A stretch of 64,000 nucleotides of DNA from Blasia pusilla (GCA_050084515.1 CM114271.1:5518001-5582000), one strand, 5' to 3'; shown: positions 21,282 through 58,561, counted from the stretch's first letter. Program-made: numbers and translations. Notes: generated by a model not told the origin, from the letters alone.

Positions 21282-24021
21282 GTAGTCAACTATACTAAAA
21301 ATTATAACTTTCCCAAAATATTGAGTTTCTATATATGGCCCCAAATGAGCCGAAACGAAGGAGAAACCTGCTCTTTCAGATTATCCATTGCCTTAGAAGG
21401 CCATCCTTAACCTCTTGAGGCTGTCCTTCCGTATCAAAGGCACTCTACTAGATGTCGTTGATCTATCCTAAAAGATGTAACATTATTGACAACATCCACA
21501 CTCTACACATTTTTTTCCATCCACATTAATAACATCCAACTTTGGAGATACTAGCTATTACCCTCTATATTATCGAAACACATACTTTCAATGAGATACT
21601 ACGAATCTAGAGTTTCTCTCCTATAAACAAGTCCCAGTCCTAGCCATTTTATATATCCACACCTCCCTCTAAGACACAATCTCTAGATTTTTGCACCATA
21701 CCACACACAACTACACAATATTTTTTAGAACATTGATCCATGTCCATTTAGAGTGTTAATTTTTTTAGTCATAATGAATATTTTTTGATAACGAGATTGA
21801 TTTTTGCAACCCTCATAGCCACACGCACGCCAATGCAAAACATCATAACTCTAGTGGGCTCACACTTGGATAGAAGTGCATCAGACTCTCACAAATGAGA
21901 TATGAGTTGCAGAAGCAAGACGCGAGCCTTTAGGGGGTATCTCAAATGATGAAGGTCATAACCTAGAAGAACAAGACTAGAAGTTGAGTTGGACTTAAGA
22001 AGAGCTCAAGGCCCACAAGGGTTGGGCACCAAGGGGACTCCAACCAGACTAAGCGTTTGGGGATTCTTGATGTTTGAGGTCATAATGATTAGACCCAATG
22101 TGTACTTGGGATGAATAAGGTGGTATTGGAAATTTTGTAAGGAGATAATTCCAAAACACTAAAGATCTAGACAAACCCATGAGCATAGATCTTGAAACCA
22201 TCCCAAGATACTAGAATGATAGTTAGGTTGAGGGCCACAAGGAATGGCCCAGAAGGACTTTCCTTAAGGTAGAGAGGGAGTGGGATCTCTAAAACTATAT
22301 ATAAGGGGAAGGATCTATGAGGGTATTTGAAACCTAAATCTGACCTTGGAAAACCATGGGCGTGAACCAAGGATACAGCATGGATCAAGAGATTGGCTTC
22401 GAGGTTGAACACCCCAACCAAGTCTAGGACCCTAAGTGGGCCAATTATGGACACCAACCGAACCATATGGATTTTTCTACTTGGAGCAATCTTCTACAAA
22501 TACTGTTTACACCATCTTATTTGAATCATCAAAATGTTTCATTATAACGTTAACCAACTTAGATGATGTGGATAAGCCCATTATAGTGTAGTTAGTCACT
22601 CGAGTCTTCAAGGCTCAAAGAAAGGGATCTTCAACGCCAAAAGCAAGTTCAACAAGCATAACTACAACTAAATAGGCTTCTTGATGGCTTTCTCTATAAG
22701 TGCATTTGATTTGGAGAATTTTGGTGGTTATAAAAGAAAGTTCAAGATCCACCATACATCAGGAAATAAGATAGAGATCCTTGTTGTACCAACCTTACAT
22801 GGTTATGAATATCAAAACATTTAGTTTAATTTGTTCTCATGTATGAATTTTTGCCTTGAATTTCCAACCATGAATCCTTACTTCTTTCAATATGTGCTTG
22901 TGAAGGTTCAAGCTTAGAAACTTATGTTCCACTTAAATTATATGTTTGGATATAGTGATTGATCTGTTTTGGTCCTATCTTTACGACTCTACATTTTCAA
23001 GGAGCGATTAGCATCAAGCGCCCCTATGGTATTCTAGAAGTCTCATTTGGAGGAAAGGTAAATTTCGTGCATCTCTTTGGATCTATAAAGGTTTATCATT
23101 TATAATCCATGGGAGATTCACTCTTGTTCAAATCCACATCTTTGTATGATATTGATAGTGTTATTTTTATGAATGTTTTTACATGATGTTGCATGGAATG
23201 CAATGAATTTTGTCTCAACTTAGGCCACTAGGTTAATACTTCAAAATGCATCAAACAATTGTAGTTCTTTCTCTTATTGTGTATTTGCATACATGTGCAA
23301 AATACCTTGCTATCAAATCAAGTATTATGGCTATTTTCAATATGTGAATCATGTAAATTTCATAAGCAGTAGTCTTAATAATGGTTGTAGAGTTTCAACT
23401 TGAAAGATGATCAACATAAGTGAAACTCGAACTTTTAATTCCAAGTGAAGTTCCTATGAGATGTTTGGTTTGCCACCAACATGTGTAGAATATGAATCTG
23501 CATGATGGACAATATTATCTCTTATAATCTCAATAGTGATTTAACTACTCTATGTAGGGAGGTCTTTCTTCAATTCTAATCCCCACCGAAGACGTATTTG
23601 ACATTTCATATTTCATACTAACCAAGACCTCACTTACAGAAGGGCCTGACTCACAATATTTTAAATTATCCAAAACCTAGAGTATGAAGGTAATTTCCTT
23701 TTTGTGTCACAGTTTCTCTATTTGAATATGATGGAAATTAATTTTGACTACTATTAGGGAGGCGAAACTCATTAAATTGAGGTGAAATCCAATTACCAAA
23801 ATAAGTTCTTTGGTGTTATTTTTAATTTTAATTTTAAACTTACAAAAACTTCAGACCTCAATGTGGTTTGTATAAGCAATTCAAGAATTAGAACAAATCA
23901 CGATTAATGACAATGGTTCCATATTAGAGAATAGTATCTCTACAAATCAAAGCATCAATACTAAATTTAACCTTAAAGAACAAGTTCGAGTAAAGCTTTC
24001 ATACAAAATCACTTAACCCTG

Positions 24022-24207
24022 AACCCTAGTTTCCCGAGTAGTGAAATAGTCGGGAGCCGCAGCGGTAGCGCATTCTCGTATGTCGAGTTATCTCCATGTT
24101 CAAGTTCCATTGAAGCTCTTATGTGAGCGCACGGACAGACTAGGCAACTTTTTATCTCTAAGTTTTGTTAAGATTTCAGTGATTTCGTCACTTTCTGTTT
24201 TCGCACA
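24022..24207 (+). repeat. Copia 5' LTR (5'-truncated)
   Basis: About 90% identical by eye to 35074-35254. Ends in CA immediately before the PBS. Confidence 0.88.
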
Positions 24208-24219
24208 TGGTATCAGAGC
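24208..24219 (+). promoter_or_regulatory. Primer-binding site complementary to initiator tRNA-Met
   Basis: TGGTATCAGAGC directly after the LTR terminal CA. Confidence 0.92.
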
Positions 24220-25567
24220 AGTAGGTTTTCGAGTATTTTGTATGTGGCGATCTAATGTGTTTACACAAAATTTTGAGAGATGGCTACTTCTTCGTCAGTT
24301 CGTGCTCGCCCTCCTATACTGCGTGAAGGGAAGTTAGATGGGACTAACTTTACATTGTGGAAGTTCAAAATGAAATCTGTCCTCGAATCATTTGAGATCT
24401 AGGAGACCGCCACAGGGGCCGATTCGAATCCACAAACTACTTTGAGTTTTTCATGTTCATCTTCATCTGGTGATATCGATCCTGTTGTATTGCTGACATG
24501 GAAACGTTGATGCTCTATATACGATTGTCATGAATGTAATTGATTCTGTCATGACTCTCATTCAACATACGACCACTGCTGCTGAGGCTTGGAACATGTT
24601 GAAGAATTAGTATGAGACGAGCAATGAGACTCGGATTTGGAATCTGGAGAATCAGCTTACGTCCGAGAAATTTTCAGAAGGAGAAAGCGCGGAGTAATTT
24701 TTGACAAGGATCAAGAATCTTCAAGATTAGTTGGTGTCCATAGTAATTTAAAAGTCTAGCAAAGATTTGGCACGTCGGTGCATAAGGATTTTGCCTCCAA
24801 GGTATGACGGTTTGGTCACTACATTGAATACTCAAGTAAGACCCACCCCGCTTATTTTTGAACAATTTAGTGCAATGTTGGTAGAAGAGGAAATGCGCTT
24901 CAAAGCAAGATAGGGAAGTGAAGCAGCATTTACTGCCAACGTACAAAGAGGTATAAATCAAGATTACAGTTCAAATGTCAAGAAGAAATTTCCAAGGAAA
25001 GCCTTCAAATGCTTTTATTGTGGTAAGCTAGGTCATCTTATCAAATATTGTAGAAAGAGGAGTCTGGATGAGAAGAACAGTTGTTTAAGACTAAGAAGGA
25101 GTATGGAAATTCTGTAGAACTAGGAAAACATGAAGTAGATGCTTAGTAGCAATCGAAGAGTTTTGCACATAGGAAGAACATTCCACTAAGTCAAAGAGTG
25201 AAGATGCATGGGTGCTCGATAGTGGAGCATCTACGCATATGACCAATCATAAGGATTGGTATAGCTCCTTATAGCCTCTACAGAAACCCATCGTTTTTAC
25301 TGTTGGGAATAATGCAAAATCCCCTGTAGAAGGTAAAGGCACAAATTCTTTAGTCTCACAAAAAAGAGATGAAAAGAAGTTAATTGATGTACTGTACGTA
25401 CCAGAGTTGAAGCGCAATTTAATTTCAGTAGCTGTCGTGCGCATACATATCGCTACACAACATACATCGCTGGTCACATCTACACCACACAACACCGATC
25501 TTCCCCACACACAGGTCGATCCACACATGTACAAAAATCAACTTATACATATACATGGAGATCACAC

Positions 25568-26860
25568 AACCAACCCATCCGCCTCAGGATAATCTCTGGA
25601 CGTGGTGCGGTGATCTATCAGCGCCTGATCACAGAAGGCCTGAAACTCTCCCCTGAACTCGGTACCCTTGTCAGTCAACACCTCCGCCGGTGCACCAAAG
25701 TGACTAAGCACACGATCTAGAAACGCATAAAGTGTTCCTCGCCGCTTTGTCCGGTAGTGCCACCAACTCTATCCACTTGGAGAAATGCTCCACCATGACC
25801 AACACGCACCTATGATGACGCCTGTCAATGGCAAAGGTCCCCAAAGTCTAAACTCCACCGATAACCTAAACCCATAATCGGCAAAGGATGTAATCGCGAG
25901 TGGGAGCATTGAAGGATGCTCGCACTCTGTCACATACCATACATTTGGCCACAAAATATCTGCACTTCAAAGATGCATGCCGCGCCACCAATACTGAACC
26001 TGGAGTAAGCTGTAAGTACGCTTTACTCCGAAATGTCCCAACTCCTCATGGGCATGTCGCACTACACGTGCTCGCTGGGAAGGATGAGATACCACTCGTA
26101 TCCTACCATCTCCCCATACCCGCAAAATGTGAGTTTCCTCCCACCTGAACCTCTTGGCTCTCTGTAGGATCCGATCACGCTCCCTAGCACTCACTGTACT
26201 CGCAATGACGCCAGTGCGCAAGAACTCCACAACCTCCACGTCGTCATGGATATCACGACCACCTGTCGCCTCCTCAGTGACATCCGGATCCAAAGACTCA
26301 TCATCCAATCCCACCACTGGAGTCATCACCTGTGGCTTACCTACCATAGTCAACCAACAAAGATAGGCAGATGCATGCCAACCGGGCACCATCTCCTCAT
26401 CACTCTCTCCGTGCCATCGAGCTCTTGTGTCGTCTCTCTGACTCGGACATGGGTTATGACTCAACCCATCCGCATCCAGGTTTAGCCGACCTGGTGTATG
26501 AACCACCTCAAACTCATACTCCTGTAGTAATAGAGCCCACCTGGCAAGCTTTCCCATAAGCTTGTCGGACTCCATCAACCACCTCAACGGCTGATGATCA
26601 GTGATAAGTATGAAAGGGTTGCCGAATAAATAGCACCTAAAATGTGCCACGGCCCACACTGCAGCCAAGCACTCTCCTCGTAGGGAGCTGACTTTACTTT
26701 GCCTCGCAATGTTGTTCGATCGGCTCACGTAAGCCACAACGAACTCCTCTCTCCTCGCATCTCTCCGAGTAAGCACGCTCCTAGACCCAACATGCTCCAA
26801 TCCGTATGTAACTGGAATGGGCGACCCCTAACCGGTCTCTGTAAAATGGGTGAGGACGTC
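25568..26860 (-). pseudogene. Gypsy RNase H and integrase, truncated inside the catalytic core
   Basis: RH: VVAYVSRS, GECLAAVWAVAHFRCYLFG, LITDHQPL, KLARWALLLQEYEF, ADGLS. Integrase Zn domain: HEELGHFG...YWWRGM...C..C. Core: WSLDF, VLTDKGTEF, HRTTSRDYPEADGL, then an abrupt loss before the catalytic Glu. Confidence 0.9.
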
Positions 26861-26886
26861 AACCTGTCCTTGAGCTCCTGAAAGCC

Positions 26887-27891
26887 TCACTCTTGATCAT
26901 CTCCCCACAAGCAAACATGATCAAGTCTCGTCAACAAGGTCAAAGACTTTGCGATCGCACTAAAACCCTTGACATACCGTCGATAGAAGTTCGCCAATCC
27001 AAGAAATGCTCGGACTCGACTCACATCTATAGGGCGTGGAATCTGCGCAATAGCCTCTACCTTCGTCTGTTGAATGCCTAACCCACTCGGGTATATGGTG
27101 TGTCCCAAGTACTCAATCTGCTCCTGAAAGAATCTACACTTGCCTCAATGTAACTTCAGTCCATGTAACTGCAATCGCCGAAACACCTCCTCCAAGTGTC
27201 GCTCATGCTCCTCAACCATGGAACCGAAGATAAGAATATCATCTATGTAACATCGTACAAAATCCAAGCCAGCCAGAATCCTATCCATCACTCTCTGAAA
27301 CTCCGCAGGCGCGTTCTTCAACCCAAATGGTATGAACCGCCACTGATACAAGCAATCTCTCTCGAACCGATCTATCCCCCAGAATGTTGTCTTCTACCTT
27401 TCCTCCAACCTGATAGGAAGCTGATGATAGCCAGCATGGAGATCTAAAGTACTAAAGATCTTTGCATGCCCTACCGCATCAAAGATCTCCTCAGGAGTAG
27501 GCATGGCATACCGATCTGACCTCGTATGTCGGTTGATAGGACGGTAATCTCCACACATCCGCCTATCCGTCCAATTGCCATACATATCCTTCTTTGCCGG
27601 CATGACTGTGGCAGATGGATACTCCCCATGTGATAACTCCACAAGTCCTGCCTCCAACAAGTCCTGACTCGTGCTCTGAATCAAGGCTCGCTCCATATCA
27701 GAATACCTGTAGGATCGACGAAAGATCGGCGTATCACTAGCCAACTCAATCCGTATCCCGGGACCCTTCAGCGTACCCAAGTCTCTCATACTGAAGGCAA
27801 AACAACTGACATGCCCTCTCAAAAACCTATGAACTTTCCGTCGCTCTCCTCCTATCAACTTGAGACGTATCACAGGCTCCCAAGTCTCCAT
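26887..27891 (-). pseudogene. Gypsy reverse transcriptase
   Basis: RMCGDYRPIN, DRYAMPTPEEIFD, FSTLDLHAGYHQL, PFGLKNAPAEFQR, YIDD (27238-27249), VRAFLGLANFYRRYV. The three ORF pieces share one frame, separated by point stops. Confidence 0.95.
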
Positions 27892-28206
27892 CGTGACCTC
27901 ACTCGGAGAGGACCCAACCTCCGGCTTTGGTTGCTATGTAGAAACCCTAGCCACCTCCGCAACAGCCACTCCACTCTGACCTCCTACACCATGCTTCACA
28001 TCCGAAAAATGAACATGTGCTACTCTAGCCGCCGTTGCACTCTCTGCTCAAACGACGTCCCAAGAAGTCCATGGGTGCCTATCTCTCCTCGTCTCGCCCC
28101 CAGCCAATGCTTGTACAGATCCTGTAGGCAATGGTCCAACTCGTGGACGTGACGGCTTGGATGACACTCGCATCCGTCTCTATTCAGCCATACCTAGGCT
28201 GACTAT

Positions 28207-28927
28207 TCATGTGAGACAGTTGAGGTCCATCGCCTGCCCCCACACCTGTCTCCGTGATGCCTCAGTCATCCCTGGCACCGCCGTAGTACCGGTGGTGAAT
28301 CCCATGGCGCGCTCGTGCTCATCTGGTGTAGGCTCCTCCAATGCTACGGTCGCCTCATCCCAAATCATGTCTGGCCCTCCTTGACGAAAGGCATGGGATG
28401 CTGGGAAGCTCACCAACGTAGGTAAGGCTGCCCTCAACTCCCCCACCCTATTGGCCATGGCCAACGGTGGTCTATCATCCCGTGTCACCACCTGAGATCG
28501 ACACCCTGAGCCCAAAATAGCATCCACTGTGAGATGTGGTGCTCTCTGGACTCCACTGTATGCTCGACTGAGTAACTCTAATGGTATCAGGCTCGTCCAC
28601 CACAGTCGTGGACGATGGGCACGTGACCCAACTCTCGCTGCATCTAACAACACAGCAGGTCCCAACCAGGACCTCACCTGATGTACACTCGTCATCACAC
28701 GTGCACGAGTGTCTCCCAACAATGGCACGTTCTCCAAAATGTACGTTGGAGAACATATCTGACTCTCCTGCAAGTGTTGTACTACTCGCAGCATCTCCCA
28801 AAATATCCCTGACCTCGGATCCTGCAATCCAAATCCTCGGCCACTTGATGAATGACCCTGACACGGCCTGCAATAGTGCAGCCAATCCGGTGCTAATCCC
28901 TCCGAAGAGATCTAACACCCTAACACC
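28207..28927 (-). pseudogene. C5 cytosine DNA methyltransferase domain (DNMT3-like) inside the Gypsy pol
   Basis: Motif I RVLDLFGGISTG (FGG 28898-28906). Motif IV PCQGHS (Cys codon 28861-28863). Motif VI YILENV (ENV 28726-28734). Motif VIII LDAARVGSRAHRPRLWW (RPR 28606-28614). Motif IX EHERAMGF. Motif X RRQVWGQAM. Motifs II-III are missing at a frameshifting junction near 28866. Confidence 0.9.
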
Positions 28928-29257
28928 CTAACACACAACAGGTGTGGTATCTAGTGGGGTCATCGTCTCCACTCCAAGAGCCCGATCGCCACGTGACTCT
29001 CGCGGCTGTGGGATAAAAACATGACTCCACGCCTGCCTCACGAGGTCGTCGGCACTTCTCTGTAGCTCCCGAGTCGTACCCCACAATCGTGAAGAGGCCT
29101 TGCCAACATGGGAAGAGACACTCGCCATGGCATGTCTCTCCGTGGGACTATCCGCTACTGGGACATCCTCCGCATGTGCGTTCCCCTCCAACAACTCTCC
29201 TGGCCAGCTAACACTACCTGTGAAAGCCGCCGACGTGGTCACAGACTCGCCTCGTGA

Positions 29258-29731
29258 TCAACCACCTCGTCCCGCAAACTGCATGGGTAACTGACTCATC
29301 CGGCCGTCACCTGACCGCCATCCTGGCCGATAAGCATCGGTCTCCTCCCATAAGTCAAGGATGAATCCTAGGGGATATAACACGGTACTCCCCACCAACA
29401 CATCGTACGACTCAGCTGGTGTCGTAATCGCATGTGTGCGCACCATAGCACTATCCGTCGCATGCTCTGGCTGGACTCTGACAACAATCTCCTGTCGAGT
29501 CATATACTGAGTGGGTGATACGCCCCCAATCGAGGTCTGTATTTGGAAGGGACAAGGCTCAATGTCGACCTTCCGTAACCCCAACGCTAAACACGCCGTC
29601 TTCCCTAACATCAAGGGTTGCGCTCCCGAATCAAGTAGGACGCGCTGCGGGTGGTATACTGTCCCCGTTGGACTAACCAAGCGAAATACTCCAGCTCGGT
29701 TATCCAGTAACACTACTCCAGGTGTCACCAC
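29258..29731 (-). pseudogene. Gypsy aspartic protease
   Basis: RVLLDSGAQ active-site motif and YDVLVGSTVL (retropepsin D-x-x-x-G-like motif). Confidence 0.85.
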
Positions 29732-30298
29732 TGCTCGCTCTATGGCCGGTCAGGCTAGAATATCTACCAACTTTGCCGCCGCCGCATGCCATGACTCTGT
29801 GGGGAACGTCCCAAGCACCGGCTCTGAGGGCAAGTCCACCACCTCCTCAACTACCTCTGAACAAGAAGCAGTCATCTCTCCACGCTCACACAATATGGCG
29901 ACCAACCGGAACACCTCAACTGGTCCAACTCCCAATGTCGCCAACTCTTTGGCGGAAAATAGCGGAGTTTGACTCACTCTGGTGGCCACCTCCAACACTA
30001 TAGTCGACACAAACTCCACTCGAGCCGGCATAGGAGTTGTCACTCCAACTCCTCGTGACGTCGACGTAGGTGCCTGAATTGTAGGCACCACTGGTCGTCG
30101 AGGCACCATCGATGGTGTGTGTAGTGCCTCCGACAATGTGAACGACTGTGGAACCCTGGACTGCCGCCCATCAGTCCCCTCTGGTGGGTCAATCTCAACT
30201 CCACCTCTCGATGGCTCGGCCTCTCCAAAGACCCGAGTCACCATTGCACCGCCTCAACCTGGCCGCACTACACATGAATCCCATATCGGGCGAGATCC

Positions 30299-31800
30299 TC
30301 ACCCGGTCGGGTAAGAGGTAGAAGCCGAGTCACGAGCCGCCGCAGCCTCCGTGCCTTCCCTAAGCTGCATCATCGTCATGGCAGCAATCCTCTGCTCCAA
30401 CTGATCGATGCGTGAGAGAAGTGTCGGCTCTGGTGCTCCTGCTCCATCTCCTCTGGCTGGTGGTGGTCCTCTTCCACCCCGTCCAGGAAGAACTCCCCGA
30501 CCTCCTCTAGGACGACCGCCCCCAGGCCCTCGGCCTACCTCTGGACGTGCCCCTCGGCGAAGGTCAAAATATCTATCCCTAGTGTGACCATATCTGTGGC
30601 AATGGTCACACTGGTGTTGTGGTGGGACCATCCTCTGTGGCTCCTGAGCAATCGGAGGCGCTGGTTGTCCTCTCCCATGTTCTGGGCAGTCTCTCTGCCT
30701 ATGGGCCCCTCCACACGTCCAACAAGACCACATCGGCCCCTGCTGGGCAACATATATAGGTGCGGGTCGTTGCCTCATAGGCTCACGGTACCCGCCTTGC
30801 TCTCTAGGCACACTGGCCCGCTCCTGTGGTACTGGTGCTCATTGTGCCACCTGTGGGGTAATCGTCGCTCATGGATCCGTCGACTCTCGAGAAAACCCAG
30901 CGGTCACTACCTGCTCCTCACTCATGTGGAGCTCAATACGCTCAGACAACTCAAAGACCACCTTCAATGTGGGCTTTGCTGTGTGAATCAGCACCGCATC
31001 TCGGACTCTCCTCCATAGTTCTCGGTCCGTAACCCGCACCAACATCGACTAATCTGCGCCTCAATCACTCCAAACGTAGCAATGATCAGCCTCCTCATGC
31101 GTGTGAATGCCTCTCTCAGACTCTCACCCGATCGTCGCTGAAAATCTTGTAGATTCTTCAGCTTGTCGATGCGTACGCCGTGGTAGCTCTTCCCCAACTG
31201 TCGGAAGAACTCCACTGTGGGGCTGAAGCTGGGTGGCCCTCTATCACCCGAGGTCTCTGCCACATCGCCTGTCTCACTGCCCTCCTCTCCATCTAGTCTC
31301 CGCGTTGATGGTGTGTGTCTCTCTCCTCTCACAATCCTATCATATGCCTCGCGACCAGTAGTGGACACATACCCTGGAGCCCAATACATCCTCGAGGCAT
31401 CGATCTCTATTGAATATAGTGATTGAAACTCCATGTAGTCATCCATCGGAGGACCCTCCAAGTGCTAGAACAACCCCTTCCATGACATGAAAGGTTTGAA
31501 CCGTGTCGGGGTCCGTATGTCCTGGAAGTCGCACCATATGTCGAACTCCTGGATGAAATCATCTAAGTCGATGGTGCCCACTGCACCCGAGAAACGACGC
31601 ATGCCCCAATGGCCCATGTCGTCCATCTCGTGCCAAGTAATATTGTCTCTGTCGGTGATCTCGTCACCAGACCCAGTGTCTAGTGATGACGATCCAGTCA
31701 CAGATGGATGTCGAGGGAGCTCCTCACTGGTAACCCCTCGGTATCTCACTCCACTCTGTGTCACACCACTACCACTGCTTGCACTACCCCGTTCTTCCGA
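30299..31800 (-). pseudogene. Gypsy Gag with two CCHC zinc knuckles
   Basis: Capsid-like FSGAVGTIDLDDFIQEF and LQDFQRRSGESLREAFTRM. Knuckles CWTCGGAHRQRDC and CDHCHRYGHTRDRY (last Cys mutated). RGG-rich stretch follows. Confidence 0.85.
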
Positions 31801-34800
31801 ACCCTGGAAGAATGCCGTGATGACGAACCCTGTCTCACCCGCTCAAGCACTCAGACTCACCGAGAGTCTCCCACGCGCCTCACTAGCTCACCTATGCTAA
31901 CGTCAATCCCGTGATGACATACCTGGCCTCACGCACGCTAAACACTCGGGCTCACCATGAGCCTCCCAACTGACTCACCTAACCTAGCGACACTCTCTCG
32001 GGTCATACACGCGACCCCTACTCGACAACCGCCGTATATCCACCAACATGCTACACATGAAAAGAATCTACACTCGTCACCATCACTGCACCCATCTAGC
32101 ACCAGCTACTACCCGATACCCAGCACTCTCAATCACACACGACAAGTGCGGGAAAAGGGACTCGAATGGGTAACTGATCACGCCTCCAACTCTTTGCACC
32201 GTCAACATGCACTCCTCCAAATGATATGACAATCTCCGCAACACAACACTCCCCTCGACCAACACGTCGATCCTCCCGTCAACAGATGCGGACAACCCGT
32301 CGGCATCATGCACACTGCCCCTCCATCGTCAACTCTCGCAACGCCCTGTCGCGCCCCAAAAACATCATGTCACGCCCGCTGTCCAACTTGTCGGTCACTC
32401 GGCACGTCGACGTCCTCCTTGCCATCACGTTGCCCATGCACCACCGCCTTCGCGTGACCGACCTCGTCCGTGCTACCAACCACGTTTGCTACAACTGCCC
32501 GACCAACTATGGTCCGTGCTACCACGTTGGAGGGGGGGGGAAACTTGGCCCGCGGCCCTATGCGGGCCCCGTGGGCCCAAAATGCACCAGGGGGGGGCCT
32601 GGCCCGCACCCCTATGGGCCCTTGGGCCTCCCCAACTTGTGGGGAGAGAAATAATGAGAGGGGGGGTGGGGCGATCCGGCCCGTGGCCTCCTGTGCGCCC
32701 GCCGAGGGGAAGGGCGCCAAGCACCTATGCGCGCCTCCCGCCTGGGGGGGGGGAGTACTAAAGAGTAGTAAAAACAGCACACCCGGCCTAAAACTCCACT
32801 CCTCAATCTACATCGGCATATTGAGCCTCGTCCACCCTGTGCTATCAAGGAATCCGGACGCTAGCACCCTAGTCCTAGCTCACACATATACAAGGTAGGT
32901 GCTCTAACGGCCCAACATGAGAAAGATGGCTTAGGAAAGCCATCTTCCTCTCTTATATAGGGTTGGGAAGAGCCAAAAGGCTCTTCCTCTAAAAATAGCC
33001 CTTCCCTTGGTAACCTGCGCGCACAGGTTAACATGGGCGGGTGACCTGGTCAACAAGTCATCCTGCTGTAAAAGACCTCAACATGAAAGTTGTCAAAAAC
33101 GACGTTCTTGACACAATGGACCTATCCTCAACCTCATCCGACACCGTGGGACAAAGTTACACTCAAGATAGTCCGCTGGCTCCTGCGCCCTATCCACGAT
33201 ATATCTCGACCTATCGGCTACTCAGATGTGATATAGCAGTATTATGTGATCGTGACGTAGACGTTTGTTTCAAGAAAACTAGAGCCGTCATTGAGGATGC
33301 CAATGGGAAATTAGTGGGTGAAGATATACGACGTGGAAATATCTACGAGCTGTATGCTTTCAAGACAAGTGTATGTACAGATCTTAGTAGCAATAAGTTG
33401 TGGCATAAAAGATTTGGTCACCCAAGCTTTCCCTTACTAAGTCAGATGCAGAAATCTGGCATGGTTGATTTACCAACAATTTGTGGAGTGTCGGATACAT
33501 GTGAAGCTTGTATGATGGGCAAGCAACACCGACAACCATTCCCTCAAGAGTCCAACAATAGAGCAAAGGTCCTCTAGAGTTCTTGCTGACGTTTGTGGTA
33601 AAATGAGAATAGTGGCATTAGGTGGTTCTTCCTACTTCTTTTTAGTTGTCGACGATTATAGTAGGAAAATGTGGGTGTATTTCCTTCGTGATAAGGCAAG
33701 TGCTTTTTGAAAATTTAAAGTATGGCACAAACAAGTTGAGAATGAGACAGGAAAGAAGATAGAGAAGCTTTGCACCGATCGAGGAGGAGAATTCTTATCA
33801 ACAGAATTCAACAAATATTTGGGGGAGTATGGAATCAAGCGACAATTAACCACGGCACATACATCACAACAAAATGGAGTTGTTGAGCGTCGAAATACAG
33901 TGGTGGAGATGGCAAGATGTATGATGAAAGCAAAAGGTTTGACAAAAGGATTTTGGGCTGAAGCTGTTAATATCGCCGTTTAGATTCTAAATAGGAGTGC
34001 TACCAAGTCTGTGCAAGGCATGACTCCTCATCAATCATACTCAGGTAAGGTACCATCATTACAACATTTCAGGACTTTTTTGATACTAAGTGCTTTGTAC
34101 ATATTCGTGAAGCATCCATGACCAAGCTAGAGTCCAAGAGCAGGAAGTGCATCATTATGGGATACAATGATGAGTCTAATGCTTATCGCCTATGGTATCG
34201 TGAGGCAAAGAAGATGGTTGTGAGTCATGATGTGGTGTTCCAAGAATAGCCTCGTCAAGTGGCGGATATCAATGGTATGTCCACATTATCATCAAACGAA
34301 GATATAATCCACTAGAGCACACCACCAATGTTTACATCAGATCAGAAGAAGAATTTGGTGATGATTACAAAGAGATTCCTGCTCTTCCACTACGGTCGTC
34401 ATACCCTAAGTGGATAAAGCAGCTCTTGGATGGTAAGGATCCACCAGCAACTGATGAAGTTTTTACACATCCAAGGAGATCCAAGAGACTAGAGGAGTTG
34501 AATAGAGCTTCCGCACATCTCGTTAACATGGCCTTGATGACATAGGTCTTGAAGGTGGACGAGCAATCTTGCTTGGATGAGGCCCTTGCTCATCCTCAAT
34601 GGAGAGAGGCCATGTAGATAGAGATGGACGCTATTCAGATAAATGAATATTTGGACTTTGGTTGAGAAGCCAAAGGACAGGAAGAAAATACGCACCAAGT
34701 GGGTATATAAGACCAAGTACAAGTCGGATGGTACATTGGATAAATTCAAAGCGAGGTTGGTTGCACAAGGATGCTAAAAAATATAAGGTTTTGACTATTA

Positions 34801-35029
34801 TGAGACTTTTTCTCCTACTGCAAGGATGACAACCATTCAAATTGTTCTAGCGGTTGCAAGAACAAGACGTTGGCATGTATACCAACACGATGTGAAGTAT
34901 GCCTTTCTGAATGAGAGTCTCAAAGAGGAGGTATATGTATCTTAACCACCAGGTTTTGAGACACCCGGATACGAACAGAAATTGTGTTTACTTCATCGAG
35001 CATTGTATGTGTATTTACTTCATCGAGCA

Positions 35030-35254
35030 AAAAAATTCTATTAATAAAAACGAAGAAAAATAGATAAAAAATCTAGTTTTCCGAGTAGTGAAATAGTTGG
35101 GAGTCGTAGTGGTAGTGCATTCTCGTATGTCGAGTTATCTCCATGTTCAGGTTCCATCAAAGCTCTTTTGTGAGCGCACGGACGGACTAGACCACTTTGT
35201 ATCTCTAAGTTTTGTAAAGATTTCAGTGATTTCGTCACTTTTTGTTTACTCACA
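35030..35254 (+). repeat. Copia 3' LTR (5'-truncated)
   Basis: Matches 24022-24207 and 241-481. Ends in CTCACA. Confidence 0.88.
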
Positions 35255-37599
35255 CTCTATCCCTCCACTAGCATGAAAAAAGGAATGCTGAACTAGAGCA
35301 ATCCTATATCACCTTGCAAAAGAAAGCACCAAGGATGTAAATCTAAATTCAAAAAAGTTCAAAAGATATTTTTGGAGTTACACTGTCTTATATGAGATGC
35401 GCGAATGTCATATTTTTGTCAAAGACGCGAGTCAAATTTCAAATGAGGGTTTCATTATGATATCCATCATTATAGTATCCAAATAACTTAGAGTGACAAG
35501 GATGTTTTGAAGCGGGTTCATCCACTTTTAGGGGAGTGGTTATGCTTGAAAATTTTGGAAAAAGGGTATAAATATGGTAAAATGGAAGCATTGGGGAGTA
35601 TTCTATCGTATCAGAAAAGGGGACAATCTAGTAAAATGGAGGTATGGTGAGGTGGTCAGGTTAAATAATTCGTAAAAGACGCGATTGAGCTGTAATTTTG
35701 TCTTATCCCATGATAAGAAGGTTATTGTTCAAAAATTAATAAAAGTTAGCTTAATATGAGAGTCCAGAGATGTCTAGTGCATTTCATCATTTTTCAAGAC
35801 GTCTCTGACTCTTGTTGTCGTGACCCTTATAACCAAACGAGCACCAAGCGGAACATCTGAACTCTAGCGAGCTCACGCTACGATGGTTTCCGCTCTAGAG
35901 TTAGAGAAACACAAGTATGAGACGCAAGCACGGCGAGCGTTTCAAGTGTTTCATGCATTTATAGTCTCAACTAAGGAAACCGAAACCAAACGCAGAACCC
36001 AGACTTAAAGAAGATGAGTCTTGGAAAGAGACGCGGCCAAGGGTGAGAACCAGACTTGGGACGTGCCTAGTGTTTGGAGTTTCCAACTGTTCTTTTGACC
36101 ATAATGTTTAGTCCCATCATGAGTTTGGGACAAGTTAGGTATCATTGTAAAGCTTATGCAGAGACGGTCCCAACGCACCAAAGATATTGGAAAACGCTTC
36201 AACAAAAGCCAAGATATGGGCTAAAACCAATTGTACGGGGAGTAGTGTTGAGGACCAAAAAGAGGGGGCTCGGGTGCTCTTTCCCAAAGATAGGGGGCCA
36301 CGGACATCCACTCAAATACTAGTAAGGGGGAAGGTATCCAAGGGTGCTTGGGACTCAAACTCCACTTTGGGCACGGCGGGGCGACTCAAGGGTATGGAAC
36401 GGATTGGGAGTTTGGCGTTGGGATTCGAAACCCAAACCAAGTCCAATAGAGTAGATTTTGGAGGTCCCTTTTGGATTCCAACTCGAGACTTATGTTGTTA
36501 AGTCTCGCTTGGAGACTCATGTGAGGTTGTTGGACAATTGGGACCGCTAGGCGCGCAAACGCCATTTTAGGTGTGTGGGCTAACCATAAAGTCTGTCCCA
36601 AGTCTCAAAAGATTTGCATGTGGTGGGAACTTAGGAAAGAGGGAAGGTTGAGCTTGATAAGGTATCGAGTCGAGGACTCGGTGAGTTGGAAGGCTGCTTG
36701 ACCCAAGCCAGACTAACGTGAGTGTGTTTAGGTGCAGGTTGGTGACGAGAGCGTGTCTTATTGAACGTATGCTTCCGCAACACTAAGATTGACGCTCGAG
36801 GAGAGTAGGCGTACGACCCTTGTCCTCTTATGTCAGACATCAACGGACTTAAATCTTAAATCCTCAATCTTTCATAATGCCTACGTACTTTAATTTATCA
36901 TTTCTTTCCTTATTGGAGCCATAGTTTGTCATTTTTGGGTTTTAACCGCCTCTCTTCTCCCCTACATCCACCTTTCACCGGACGTGGTGAAGGTAAATAT
37001 TGTACTTTTCACTCGTGGCGAAGCTTTTTCCATCTCTTCCTTACGTCGTCACACTGAACTTTGCAATGTCAGATCTGTTGCGTTTTGCCATCTAGCTCAG
37101 GATGGCAGATTATGGGTGACCCGCACTTTGAATTCAAAATCCCTTGGATAGAAATATTATTTTGAATTATCTCCCTTTTTCACTATATCGTATATGAACA
37201 GTTGGGTTTTTTTTTAATCTATTTTACTCCTAAAACAACCGTTCACGACAATAATTTTGTAGATGGGTTAGAAGAAGATATTATTAAAGATGCTCTCCAA
37301 AGACAAATATATTTCATTACTAGCATAATCCATTGGTAAAGATTTTTTTACCAATGTCCACATAAGGAGGGTTATATTATGAGTTGGTTTCGTGTCCAGC
37401 TAGCCAAAAGAAAATCACAGGTCTGAAACCGACCGTATAGGCAGGTTCTTTTTGTATTTATATCTAATTAGCCCATCGGAATGGGGAAATTTTCAAATTT
37501 AACTGCTCGGTTTTGTATATACCGATTCTTACGGGAGAACTACCCGAACCCTGTTTATGATTGTTCTAATGTGGTGAGGGAAAAGGTATCCATTAAATA

Positions 37600-57910: not shown

Positions 57911-58123
57911 GAGCTCCGCAGTATGGAAAGGGCAACGATACCCTCTACCATCCCATCCAGTATACCATGTCGTATTATTTTAGGTCTGAGCAATACTGCC
58001 GGATATTGAGGTGTCGGGGACTTCCTCCATCTCTCCACATTTCGATCGGGCAAGCAGAGAACGTTGCGGAGTGCTACTAGTTGCGTTTCTTTCTGCCTCA
58101 CCATCGCAAAGCTAGACACAAAA

Positions 58124-58561
58124 ATGGTGGTAGTGTGGCTGCTGTTGATAGGAAGCGTGTGGGGAACGACGAATGCTTTCATCAAGCGCGGGGCTTTCAT
58201 AGCGCAAGAGAAGGAGAAGCGGCGCAAGGAGAAGCGGAAGGCTGGGGAGAACACAAGAACCAACGCTTTCCGGCTCGTGCCTTTCGTCGAGGACTGGATT
58301 CATCTTCTCTGCGTGTGGGAGTATTCGATCCCATTCTTGGTGAATTTATCAGCGTCGATTTTGTTTTTTAAGAAGTTGGGAGACAGTCCAATTAACATCG
58401 CGGTGCCCGTGACAAACGCTACAACCTTCGCCGTGACGGCGATCGCGGGTGCGGCGCTGGGAGAGCGCATAGAAGTTCCCAAGGCAATGTTGGGCATTGC
58501 GTTGATTGTGGTAGGAATTGTGTTGTGCATCGCTCCTGGTATCATGACCAAAGACGGTTGA
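58124..58561 (+). CDS. TMEM234: TMEM234-family small membrane protein (DMT superfamily), intronless
   Basis: LLIGSVWGTTNAFIKRG...YSIPFLVNLSASILFF..LGDSPINIAVPVTNATTFAVTAIAG..LGE are TMEM234 signatures. ATG in a good AAAATGG context. Confidence 0.9.
   Translation: MVVVWLLLIGSVWGTTNAFIKRGAFIAQEKEKRRKEKRKAGENTRTNAFRLVPFVEDWIHLLCVWEYSIPFLVNLSASILFFKKLGDSPINIAVPVTNATTFAVTAIAGAALGERIEVPKAMLGIALIVVGIVLCIAPGIMTKDG

Follow-up and report, generated by a model that had tools for sequence, protein, structure and literature searches.

A decayed Gypsy-type retrotransposon with a predicted DNMT3-type cytosine methyltransferase domain between protease and reverse transcriptase

The window analysed here is a 64 kb stretch (64,000 nucleotides) of Blasia pusilla DNA (GCA_050084515.1 CM114271.1:5518001-5582000). 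On its minus strand, from 33230 to 25433, lies a single decayed Ty3/Gypsy-type retrotransposon nested in a plus-strand Copia element, with the domain order Gag(CCHC)-protease (PR)-C5 cytosine methyltransferase (MTase)-reverse transcriptase (RT)-RNase H (RH)-integrase (IN). A tblastn search found one copy only of this Gypsy-DNMT3 family in the window. Other Copia copies found in public sequencing runs define the limits of the insert (~25431/25433 to 33230): in runs X4 and X6, contigs link 25430 directly to 33231 and leave the Copia frame NLISV-DIAVLCDRD (NLISVDIAVL) intact, which puts the insertion point in the protease-integrase region of the Copia element. The insert (25431-33230, minus strand) is also supported by collinear tblastn similarity to the related proteins P0003, P0005, P0050 and P0056, and the window is collinear with relatives from Gag through integrase.

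We scanned 10 minus-strand open reading frames (ORFs) of the element against Pfam. DNA_methylase (PF00145) matched at 28207-28911 (E 2e-8, 34.5 bits against a cut-off of 22), and relatives score 35-45 bits against the same family. RVT_1 matched at 27145-27393 (E 1.6e-16), ORF 25967-26827 matched both RT_RNaseH (1.1e-22) and Integrase_H2C2 (5.9e-10), and ORF 25562-25768 matched rve at 29.1 bits, under the cut-off of 32.6. Among these 10 ORFs, no Pfam match was obtained for the protease, the linker or the two Gag ORFs; protease and Gag were identified from their motifs (LLDSGAQ; CX2CX4HX4C) and from collinear tblastn alignment with relatives in which the corresponding regions match Asp_protease_2 and zf-CCHC. 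An earlier note, made from the sequence alone, had described a Gypsy-type element with a C5-MTase between protease and RT. The PR-RT-RH-IN order and the DDE integrase bear out the first part of that description, and the PF00145 match to the window ORF bears out the second. The coordinates and motifs given there are right.

Read from its 5' end on the minus strand, the element begins with an A-type terminal repeat (32759-33230), which in other copies directly adjoins the B-type repeat (joints 25570/32759 in X1, X6 and X19 RNA reads); in run X1 its summed depth exceeds that of most internal bins ~3- to 25-fold. A leader rich in C/G runs (31606-32758) fills the interval from the A repeat to 31605, where Gag similarity starts, and relatives have a ~1.2 kb leader at the equivalent position. 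Across four runs, zero contigs or reads were placed on the long C/G runs of the leader at 32462-32748, perhaps through filtering or low complexity. Gag (29750-31605; tblastn to residues 10-900 of P0003) has a frame change near 31037 and several stops. Its CCHC zinc knuckle(s) include CWTCGGAHRQRDC in the ORF 30299-30838. The aspartic protease (29258-29749; ORF and alignment A1) has the active site LLDSGAQ with its D at 29630-29632; the relatives P0034 and P0044 match zf-CCHC, Asp_protease_2 and DNA_methylase in Pfam.

The MTase starts with a motif I remnant, LDLFGGISTGLAALLQA (28867-28927; alignment A1). After a breakpoint at 28865-28866, motifs IV-X occupy 28210-28866 (PCQ at 28858-28866, ENV at 28726-28734, then HRPRLWW, ERAMGF and GQAMD), as placed by PF00145, alignment A1 and the profile search against PDB described below. 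A TAG at 27934-27936 precedes the RT (26828-27933; Pfam RVT_1 and tblastn), which has YIDD at 27238-27249 and contains three stops. RNase H, an integrase zinc finger and an integrase core cut after ...EADGLV fill 25571-26827 (Pfam RT_RNaseH, Integrase_H2C2 and rve). The 3' terminal repeat, of B type (25433-25570), ends in ...GCGCACGACA, and over the last 44 nt it shares 83-90% identity with the B-repeat ends of the related loci L018, L057, L067 and L074.

The window copy is dead – a fossil without function. Besides one conserved stop, it has 16 premature stops in homologous frames and at least three frame changes (tblastn). At the breakpoint within the MTase, 72 codons between motifs I and IV have been deleted (motifs II-III; residues 901-972 of the Marchantia protein P0003) and the frame changes from -1 to -2. 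This loss brings motif I nearly next to motif IV (PCQ) in the window, whereas 88 residues separate them in 39 of the 43 relatives in which both were found. Motifs I, IV, VI, VIII, IX and X are still recognisable, but this copy, unlike its relatives, has no complete I-X set in one open frame, and three premature stops separate motif X from the conserved stop. The integrase core is truncated: similarity to P0050 ends at residue 1236 of 1494, and relative to locus L074 ~930 nt up to the polypurine tract are absent. Frame arithmetic in the earlier note had placed the Gag knuckle, protease, linker and motif I in one frame and the C-terminal MTase part together with RT in another, and this stands.

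Contigs from X4 and X6, which represent two organisms, run on from 28866 into the undeleted segment, and copies in runs of two organisms (95-99% alike) have a sense codon where the 234-aa window ORF terminates. These defects are therefore confined to the window copy or shared by only a few others. Of 147 places that differ in run X1, 79 are T/A in the window and C/G in other copies, against 22 in the reverse direction; this excess fits an old, mutated copy. Among 26 listed differing places we found no clear preference for a methylation context (CG 9, CHG 8, CHH 9). Raw RNA reads of X19 (95-99% likeness) derive from other copies and mostly cover RT to IN.

Our analyses support a DNMT3-type, unpermuted C5 cytosine MTase domain in the window element, as had been suggested earlier. 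We searched PDB with a profile built from the window and intact relatives (profile A1) and found DNMT3A at E 5.7e-20 and DNMT3C/3B at 1e-18 to 1e-15, followed by DRM at 1e-10 to 3e-9 (best 1.3e-10), M.HaeIII at 8.4e-7 and DNMT2 at 6e-4. Motifs I-VIII and IX-X of the profile are collinear with DNMT3A. An AlphaFold model of the relative P0026 (mean pLDDT 85.4, and >90 across most of the domain) gave the same picture when compared with PDB by Foldseek: all 33 of the matches listed, down to rank 48, are DNMT3A/B/C, with TM ~0.8 by target length. An ESM Atlas search with P0026 returned generic DNA_methylase clusters only, mostly labelled viral. The likeness to cellular DNMT3A/3B/3C thus comprises the top profile and fold matches, the motif order I to X, and an aligning PC(Q/N), ENV, RxR and IX/X region. 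In contrast to those enzymes, the element domain is without a PWWP or ADD region, shares ~20% identity, is embedded in a Gag-PR polyprotein and has ~89 residues rather than 64 in the stretch between motifs VIII and IX. Plant DRM likewise has a DNMT3-related catalytic domain, but it is circularly permuted, unlike the element domain, and aligns over motifs I-VI only, located in the DRM C-terminal part.

A search with the window ORF matched 61 longer proteins. The best were from Calypogeia fissa (69% identity) and Marchantia polymorpha (66%), and further matches included many Marchantia polymorpha paralogues, Sphagnum and many metagenome proteins. Open frames with the same domain order occur in Marchantia, Calypogeia, Sphagnum and Closterium as well as in many metagenome proteins; P0050 carries DNA_methylase-RVT_1-RNaseH-H2C2-rve (Pfam) in a single 1494-aa ORF. 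An exhaustive profile search, counted as 50%-identity representatives, gave 9580 proteins with an E value of 1e-3 or better, of which 1876 reached 1e-10 and 483 reached 1e-30; many of these matches sit in polyproteins of 1000-3456 residues. The named members outside bryophytes are a Closterium protein (DNMT-RT-IN) and a Scenedesmus 'pol'; of 10 representative clusters, 1 had a name attached. Genomic loci were obtained with the alignment as query, P0050 alone having given none. Many of them are not independent, being copies that belong to a small number of families in related samples. One clade member, P0024 (455 aa, on a 2.4-kb contig), is labelled as an MTase from a Candidatus Obscuribacterales metagenome-assembled genome, probably a binning error.

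By these sequence comparisons the lineage is a recurrent one in bryophytes, with named hits in Marchantia, Calypogeia and Sphagnum, and the architecture is less exotic for land plants than the earlier note had supposed. The nearest named relatives are liverworts, which would by itself point to a bryophyte host. A literature search whose coverage largely excluded subscription journals and supplements returned no description of Gypsy-DNMT3 elements in Marchantia or other bryophytes, and the word Marchantia is absent from the main text of de Mendoza et al. 2018 (PMC5890265), the paper on which the earlier note had drawn.

The MTase occupies two positions within this wider group. Among 322 MTase-bearing proteins, 88 are of type I, with the domain after the protease and/or before RT, and 90 are of type II, with the domain after RT/RNaseH and/or before the integrase; 143 are MTase-only fragments and 1 is odd. 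Type II is a sister clade with the order RT-RNaseH-DNMT-integrase that includes the Scenedesmus 'pol'. In an unrooted MTase tree of 86 rows (57 dropped by random thinning; quick IQ-TREE search, without cellular DNMT3), one branch splits types I and II (SH-aLRT 98), and the window falls within a clade of 12 with liverwort proteins (SH-aLRT 100). Three type II proteins scanned with Pfam (P0215, P0204 and P0182) have a C-terminal PHD finger after the integrase – a second chromatin-related module.

The terminal repeats of the relatives are split, with the layout A1...B1-A2-B2 in five loci from four distinct sites (L018, L040, L057 and L067/L074). The first repeat, A1, is ~340 bp long and starts TGTCATG; next come the leader and coding sequence (~8.3 kb together), the polypurine tract and B1. 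B1 is 115 bp long, ends CACGACA and is followed by 2 nt, A2 and B2, for a total of ~9.2 kb. These relatives have TG..CA ends and 4-bp target-site duplications (TSDs; AAGG, CATA, TCTC and AACA/AATA). The gap between B1 and A2 is exactly 2 nt in L018, L040, L057, L067 and L074 (gc, at, gc, tc and gc, respectively), with B1 ending ..ACA and A2 starting TGTC or TATC. This B1-nn-A2 joint looks like two element ends set head to tail, a junction that may bear on the origin of the split repeats. Other copies seen in reads have A directly followed by B, at the 25570/32759 joints, and in X6 the polypurine tract stands directly upstream of B. The relatives do not have identical long terminal repeats (LTRs): their repeats are split, with no B beside A1. 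By eye, no tRNA-type primer-binding site was recognised after the A repeat. No tyrosine recombinase appeared in any Pfam scan made, which found rve and Integrase_H2C2 instead. Assignment to the DIRS order was rejected because a DDE integrase (rve, Integrase_H2C2) and 4-bp TSDs are present.

The stop that precedes RT, at 27936-27934, is by comparison with relatives a conserved family stop and not a product of decay. In loci L001 and L003, a Gag-PR-DNMT ORF of 1369 aa (728 aa in L003) and an RT-RH-IN ORF of 1047 aa lie in the same frame with a single TAG between them. The stop and its context read TAG CAG TTA in L001 and L002, TAG CAA TCA in L003 and TAG CAA CCA in the window; a large metagenome subfamily has TAG or TAA CAA CCC, in which the final base is not A. 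An in-frame stop with CAR-YYN at the homologous place was found in 42 of 68 loci (31 TAG, 11 TAA). It is exactly at this stop that the annotated proteins from Marchantia and Calypogeia terminate, as do several from metagenomes; one Marchantia gene model, P0005, skips it.

The leaky stop of plant viruses is UAG-CAR-YYA, and the element stop context resembles it. The sequence side of such readthrough is present: an in-frame UAG between same-frame ORFs, conserved among diverged relatives. RT-RH-IN may therefore be made via UAG readthrough, and if so, the MTase would be part of the abundant Gag-PR product and not of the rarer RT-IN product. The single-polyprotein ancestor proposed in the earlier note is retained in part: there is one coding frame in the lineage, but the conserved in-frame UAG splits Gag-PR-DNMT from RT-RH-IN.

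Consistent with use of the domain by the elements, MTase dN/dS is 0.095-0.117 in three pairs among L001, L002 and L003. Across 31 sequences sharing 30-44% identity, no variation occurs at the catalytic Cys, the ENV Glu or the RxR Arg. Low dN/dS together with invariant catalytic residues suggests that the elements need the MTase domain.

The precedent cited in the earlier note, de Mendoza et al. 2018 (PMC5890265), proves to be the right one. KnitGypsy-Dnmt3 of Klebsormidium nitens, as described there, combines Gypsy-type pol domains with a DNMT3-related unrearranged MTase in a polyprotein, and the figure legends, including that of Fig. 4, give it A-coding-B-A-B repeats, the DIRS layout, together with Gypsy domains. 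The present family shares with it the DNMT3 domain in a Gypsy polyprotein, the A-coding-B-A-B layout, an intronless and multi-copy state, and purifying selection on the MTase (Ka/Ks <0.2 there, ~0.1 here). It differs in its hosts, which here are liverworts, mosses and other green algae; an in-frame UAG, TG..CA ends and 4-bp TSDs were not encountered in the text of PMC5890265 on KnitGypsy-Dnmt3. SymbioDIRS-Dnmt3 of Symbiodinium (PMC5890265) also has, by the account given there, a DNMT3-type domain in pol and A-coding-B-A-B repeats, but it is a DIRS element with a tyrosine recombinase, whereas the present family has a DDE integrase (rve, H2C2) and TSDs. Canonical Ty3/Gypsy elements share Gag(CCHC)-PR-RT-RH-IN, the DDE integrase, the polypurine tract, TG..CA ends and a short TSD; the MTase, the split repeats and the in-frame UAG before RT-RH-IN are additional here. 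EpiLTRs/DAM-LTRs (bioRxiv 10.64898/2026.05.21.726589) are likewise described as LTR-type retrotransposons with acquired DNA methyltransferase domains, but their cytosine MTase is sister to DNMT4 and has been added to pol at its 3' end, along with an adenine MTase and a chromodomain. As far as these sources go, 'streptophyte Gypsy-DNMT3' is treated as a known class (PMC12344493; bioRxiv 10.64898/2026.05.21.726589), and as a separate acquisition from EpiLTRs/DAM-LTRs in the latter.

We consider it highly probable that the window holds a dead copy of a Ty3/Gypsy-type family with an inherited DNMT3-type MTase, of the same kind as KnitGypsy-Dnmt3, for which readthrough and enzyme activity are presumed. 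Intact relatives are organized as an ORF1 encoding Gag(CCHC)-protease-DNMT, a conserved in-frame UAG (CAR-YYN) and, in the same frame, RT-RNaseH-integrase, with the element bounded as A - coding - polypurine tract - B - 2 nt - A - B and having TG..CA ends and 4-bp TSDs. Readthrough would make RT-RH-IN, so that the MTase would be synthesised alongside Gag and protease and would outnumber RT and IN. The domain would be an active DNA methyltransferase needed by the element, and its target would most likely be the element's own new or integrated DNA.

Several observations weigh against parts of this interpretation. The window copy has no LTR pair by LTR search, and shows A...B only: a second A is missing and a TSD is not clear. 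That the LTR search was empty is explained by the split repeats together with the 3' deletion. Searched alone against PDB with phmmer, the window ORF gave weak matches (E 0.14 or worse), to M.HaeIII/M.HhaI and not to DNMT3. The conserved stop was not seen in frame in 26 of 68 loci, most of which look frame-shifted, and the distant relatives P0050, P0051, P0057 and P0323 are without a stop there; the argument for readthrough is one from conservation. One near-identical copy pair has a dN/dS of 0.94, as expected for post-insertion decay. The element shows no special CpG loss (observed/expected 0.77, against 0.71 for the whole window). The KnitGypsy-Dnmt3 domain gave no methylation in yeast, a result that its authors term inconclusive (PMC5890265), and placing the present family as probably of the same kind draws on shared features rather than on a tree.

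It could be argued that this one copy carries the MTase as a passenger, captured by chance, inserted as a nested fragment of a host DNMT3 or produced by misassembly, given the heavy decay, the two domain halves in different frames and the missing LTR pair. The frame change, however, is accounted for by one private deletion, and X6 contigs from another organism span the MTase-RT junction (27552-28456) while others span Gag-protease. With the same order found in open frames in many proteins of several species, sister copies refute a passenger, and we regard this explanation as scarcely credible. The evidence instead supports an MTase inherited with the rest of the element's coding region, in which it stands between protease and RT, in keeping with the earlier view that it is not a random passenger; relatives show the same order and copies in public runs keep the deleted segment.

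A second question is whether the bryophyte elements gained DNMT3 independently of the Klebsormidium Gypsy-DNMT3, by convergent host capture, or belong with it to one old streptophyte lineage. Three word-indexed searches returned no Klebsormidium protein, recurrent independent captures are documented in PMC5890265 for the cases treated there, and the clade found here has two domain positions in the polyprotein. Yet missing Klebsormidium matches may reflect the word index or transposon-masked gene sets, the bryophyte and Klebsormidium elements have two unusual features in common (a DNMT3-type domain in Gypsy pol and A-coding-B-A-B), and the MTase clade is old and wide, with its 483 representatives at E 1e-30 or better and members in Closterium, Scenedesmus, liverworts and mosses. 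We think independent capture unlikely. Somewhat less unlikely, though still improbable in our judgement, is that the domain is kept for a role other than methylating the element's own DNA: marking host DNA near insertions, limiting the element's own copy number, interfering with host silencing, or acting on RNA. Purifying selection indicates use and not target, a purely catalytic, low-copy enzyme would not need its location in the abundant Gag-PR ORF, the element is without special CpG depletion, and the authors of PMC5890265 call the role of retrotransposon DNMTs unclear in that text. Set against this, fold and motifs are those of a DNMT3-type DNA methyltransferase and not of DNMT2 (6e-4 versus 5.7e-20 for DNMT3A), and nothing in the data favours any particular other target.

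A family that inherited its MTase, as we prefer to read the window element, allows a broader and more speculative proposal, which we hold only tentatively and think doubtful as a whole. Green plants and algae may harbour a clade of integrase-bearing retroelements with a selected DNMT3 domain, replicating with a DIRS-like A-coding-B-A-B layout in which the inner B-nn-A joint imitates two ends joined together. In bryophytes, the enzyme would be encoded upstream of a leaky UAG, made in Gag-like amounts and packed into particles, where it would methylate new cDNA before or at integration, allowing the element to set its own epigenetic state independently of the de novo pathway of the host. The earlier note had likewise suggested that the protease may free the MTase within the particle so that it methylates the new cDNA.

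Retrotransposons that encode an enzyme normally used to silence them bear on the interplay between transposons and the host epigenome. In the sources at hand, a single alga provides the one published Gypsy case, whose enzyme could not be shown to be active; the yeast assay is the only one published for the Klebsormidium Gypsy MTase domain (PMC5890265). Elements of this kind are common in liverworts and mosses, including the laboratory model Marchantia polymorpha, and diverse in metagenomes and green algae, offering tractable hosts and many natural intact enzymes. Both the conserved, putatively leaky stop and the split-repeat ends with their target duplications offer concrete points at which expression and insertion can be tested. 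Details added here that may be new are this stop, the position of the enzyme in the Gag-PR ORF, the TG..CA ends with 4-bp TSDs and the sister architecture in green algae.

The remainder of the window provides the following observations. The decayed host Copia element spans 24000-35300 on the plus strand, interrupted at 25431-33230, and its family is highly repeated in the public runs examined. Its left part (24914-25430, plus strand), delimited by ORFs and the empty-site joint, comprises a Gag knuckle (24914-25117) and a protease ending ...NLISV; its right part (33231-34950, plus strand) comprises gag_pre-integrs, integrase and RT, based on ORFs and a Pfam gag_pre-integrs match on 33032-33577. 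Short repeats at 24026-24207 and 35073-35254 are 90% alike and also match 259-481. Parts of the stretch are contained in the air metagenome runs X7 and X10-X12 (shares 0.09-0.23). Among ten long window ORFs scanned, the sole non-transposon family match is TMEM234 (Pfam, E 2.5e-27), in a 183-aa ORF at 58010-58561 on the plus strand that is possibly a host gene or one exon.

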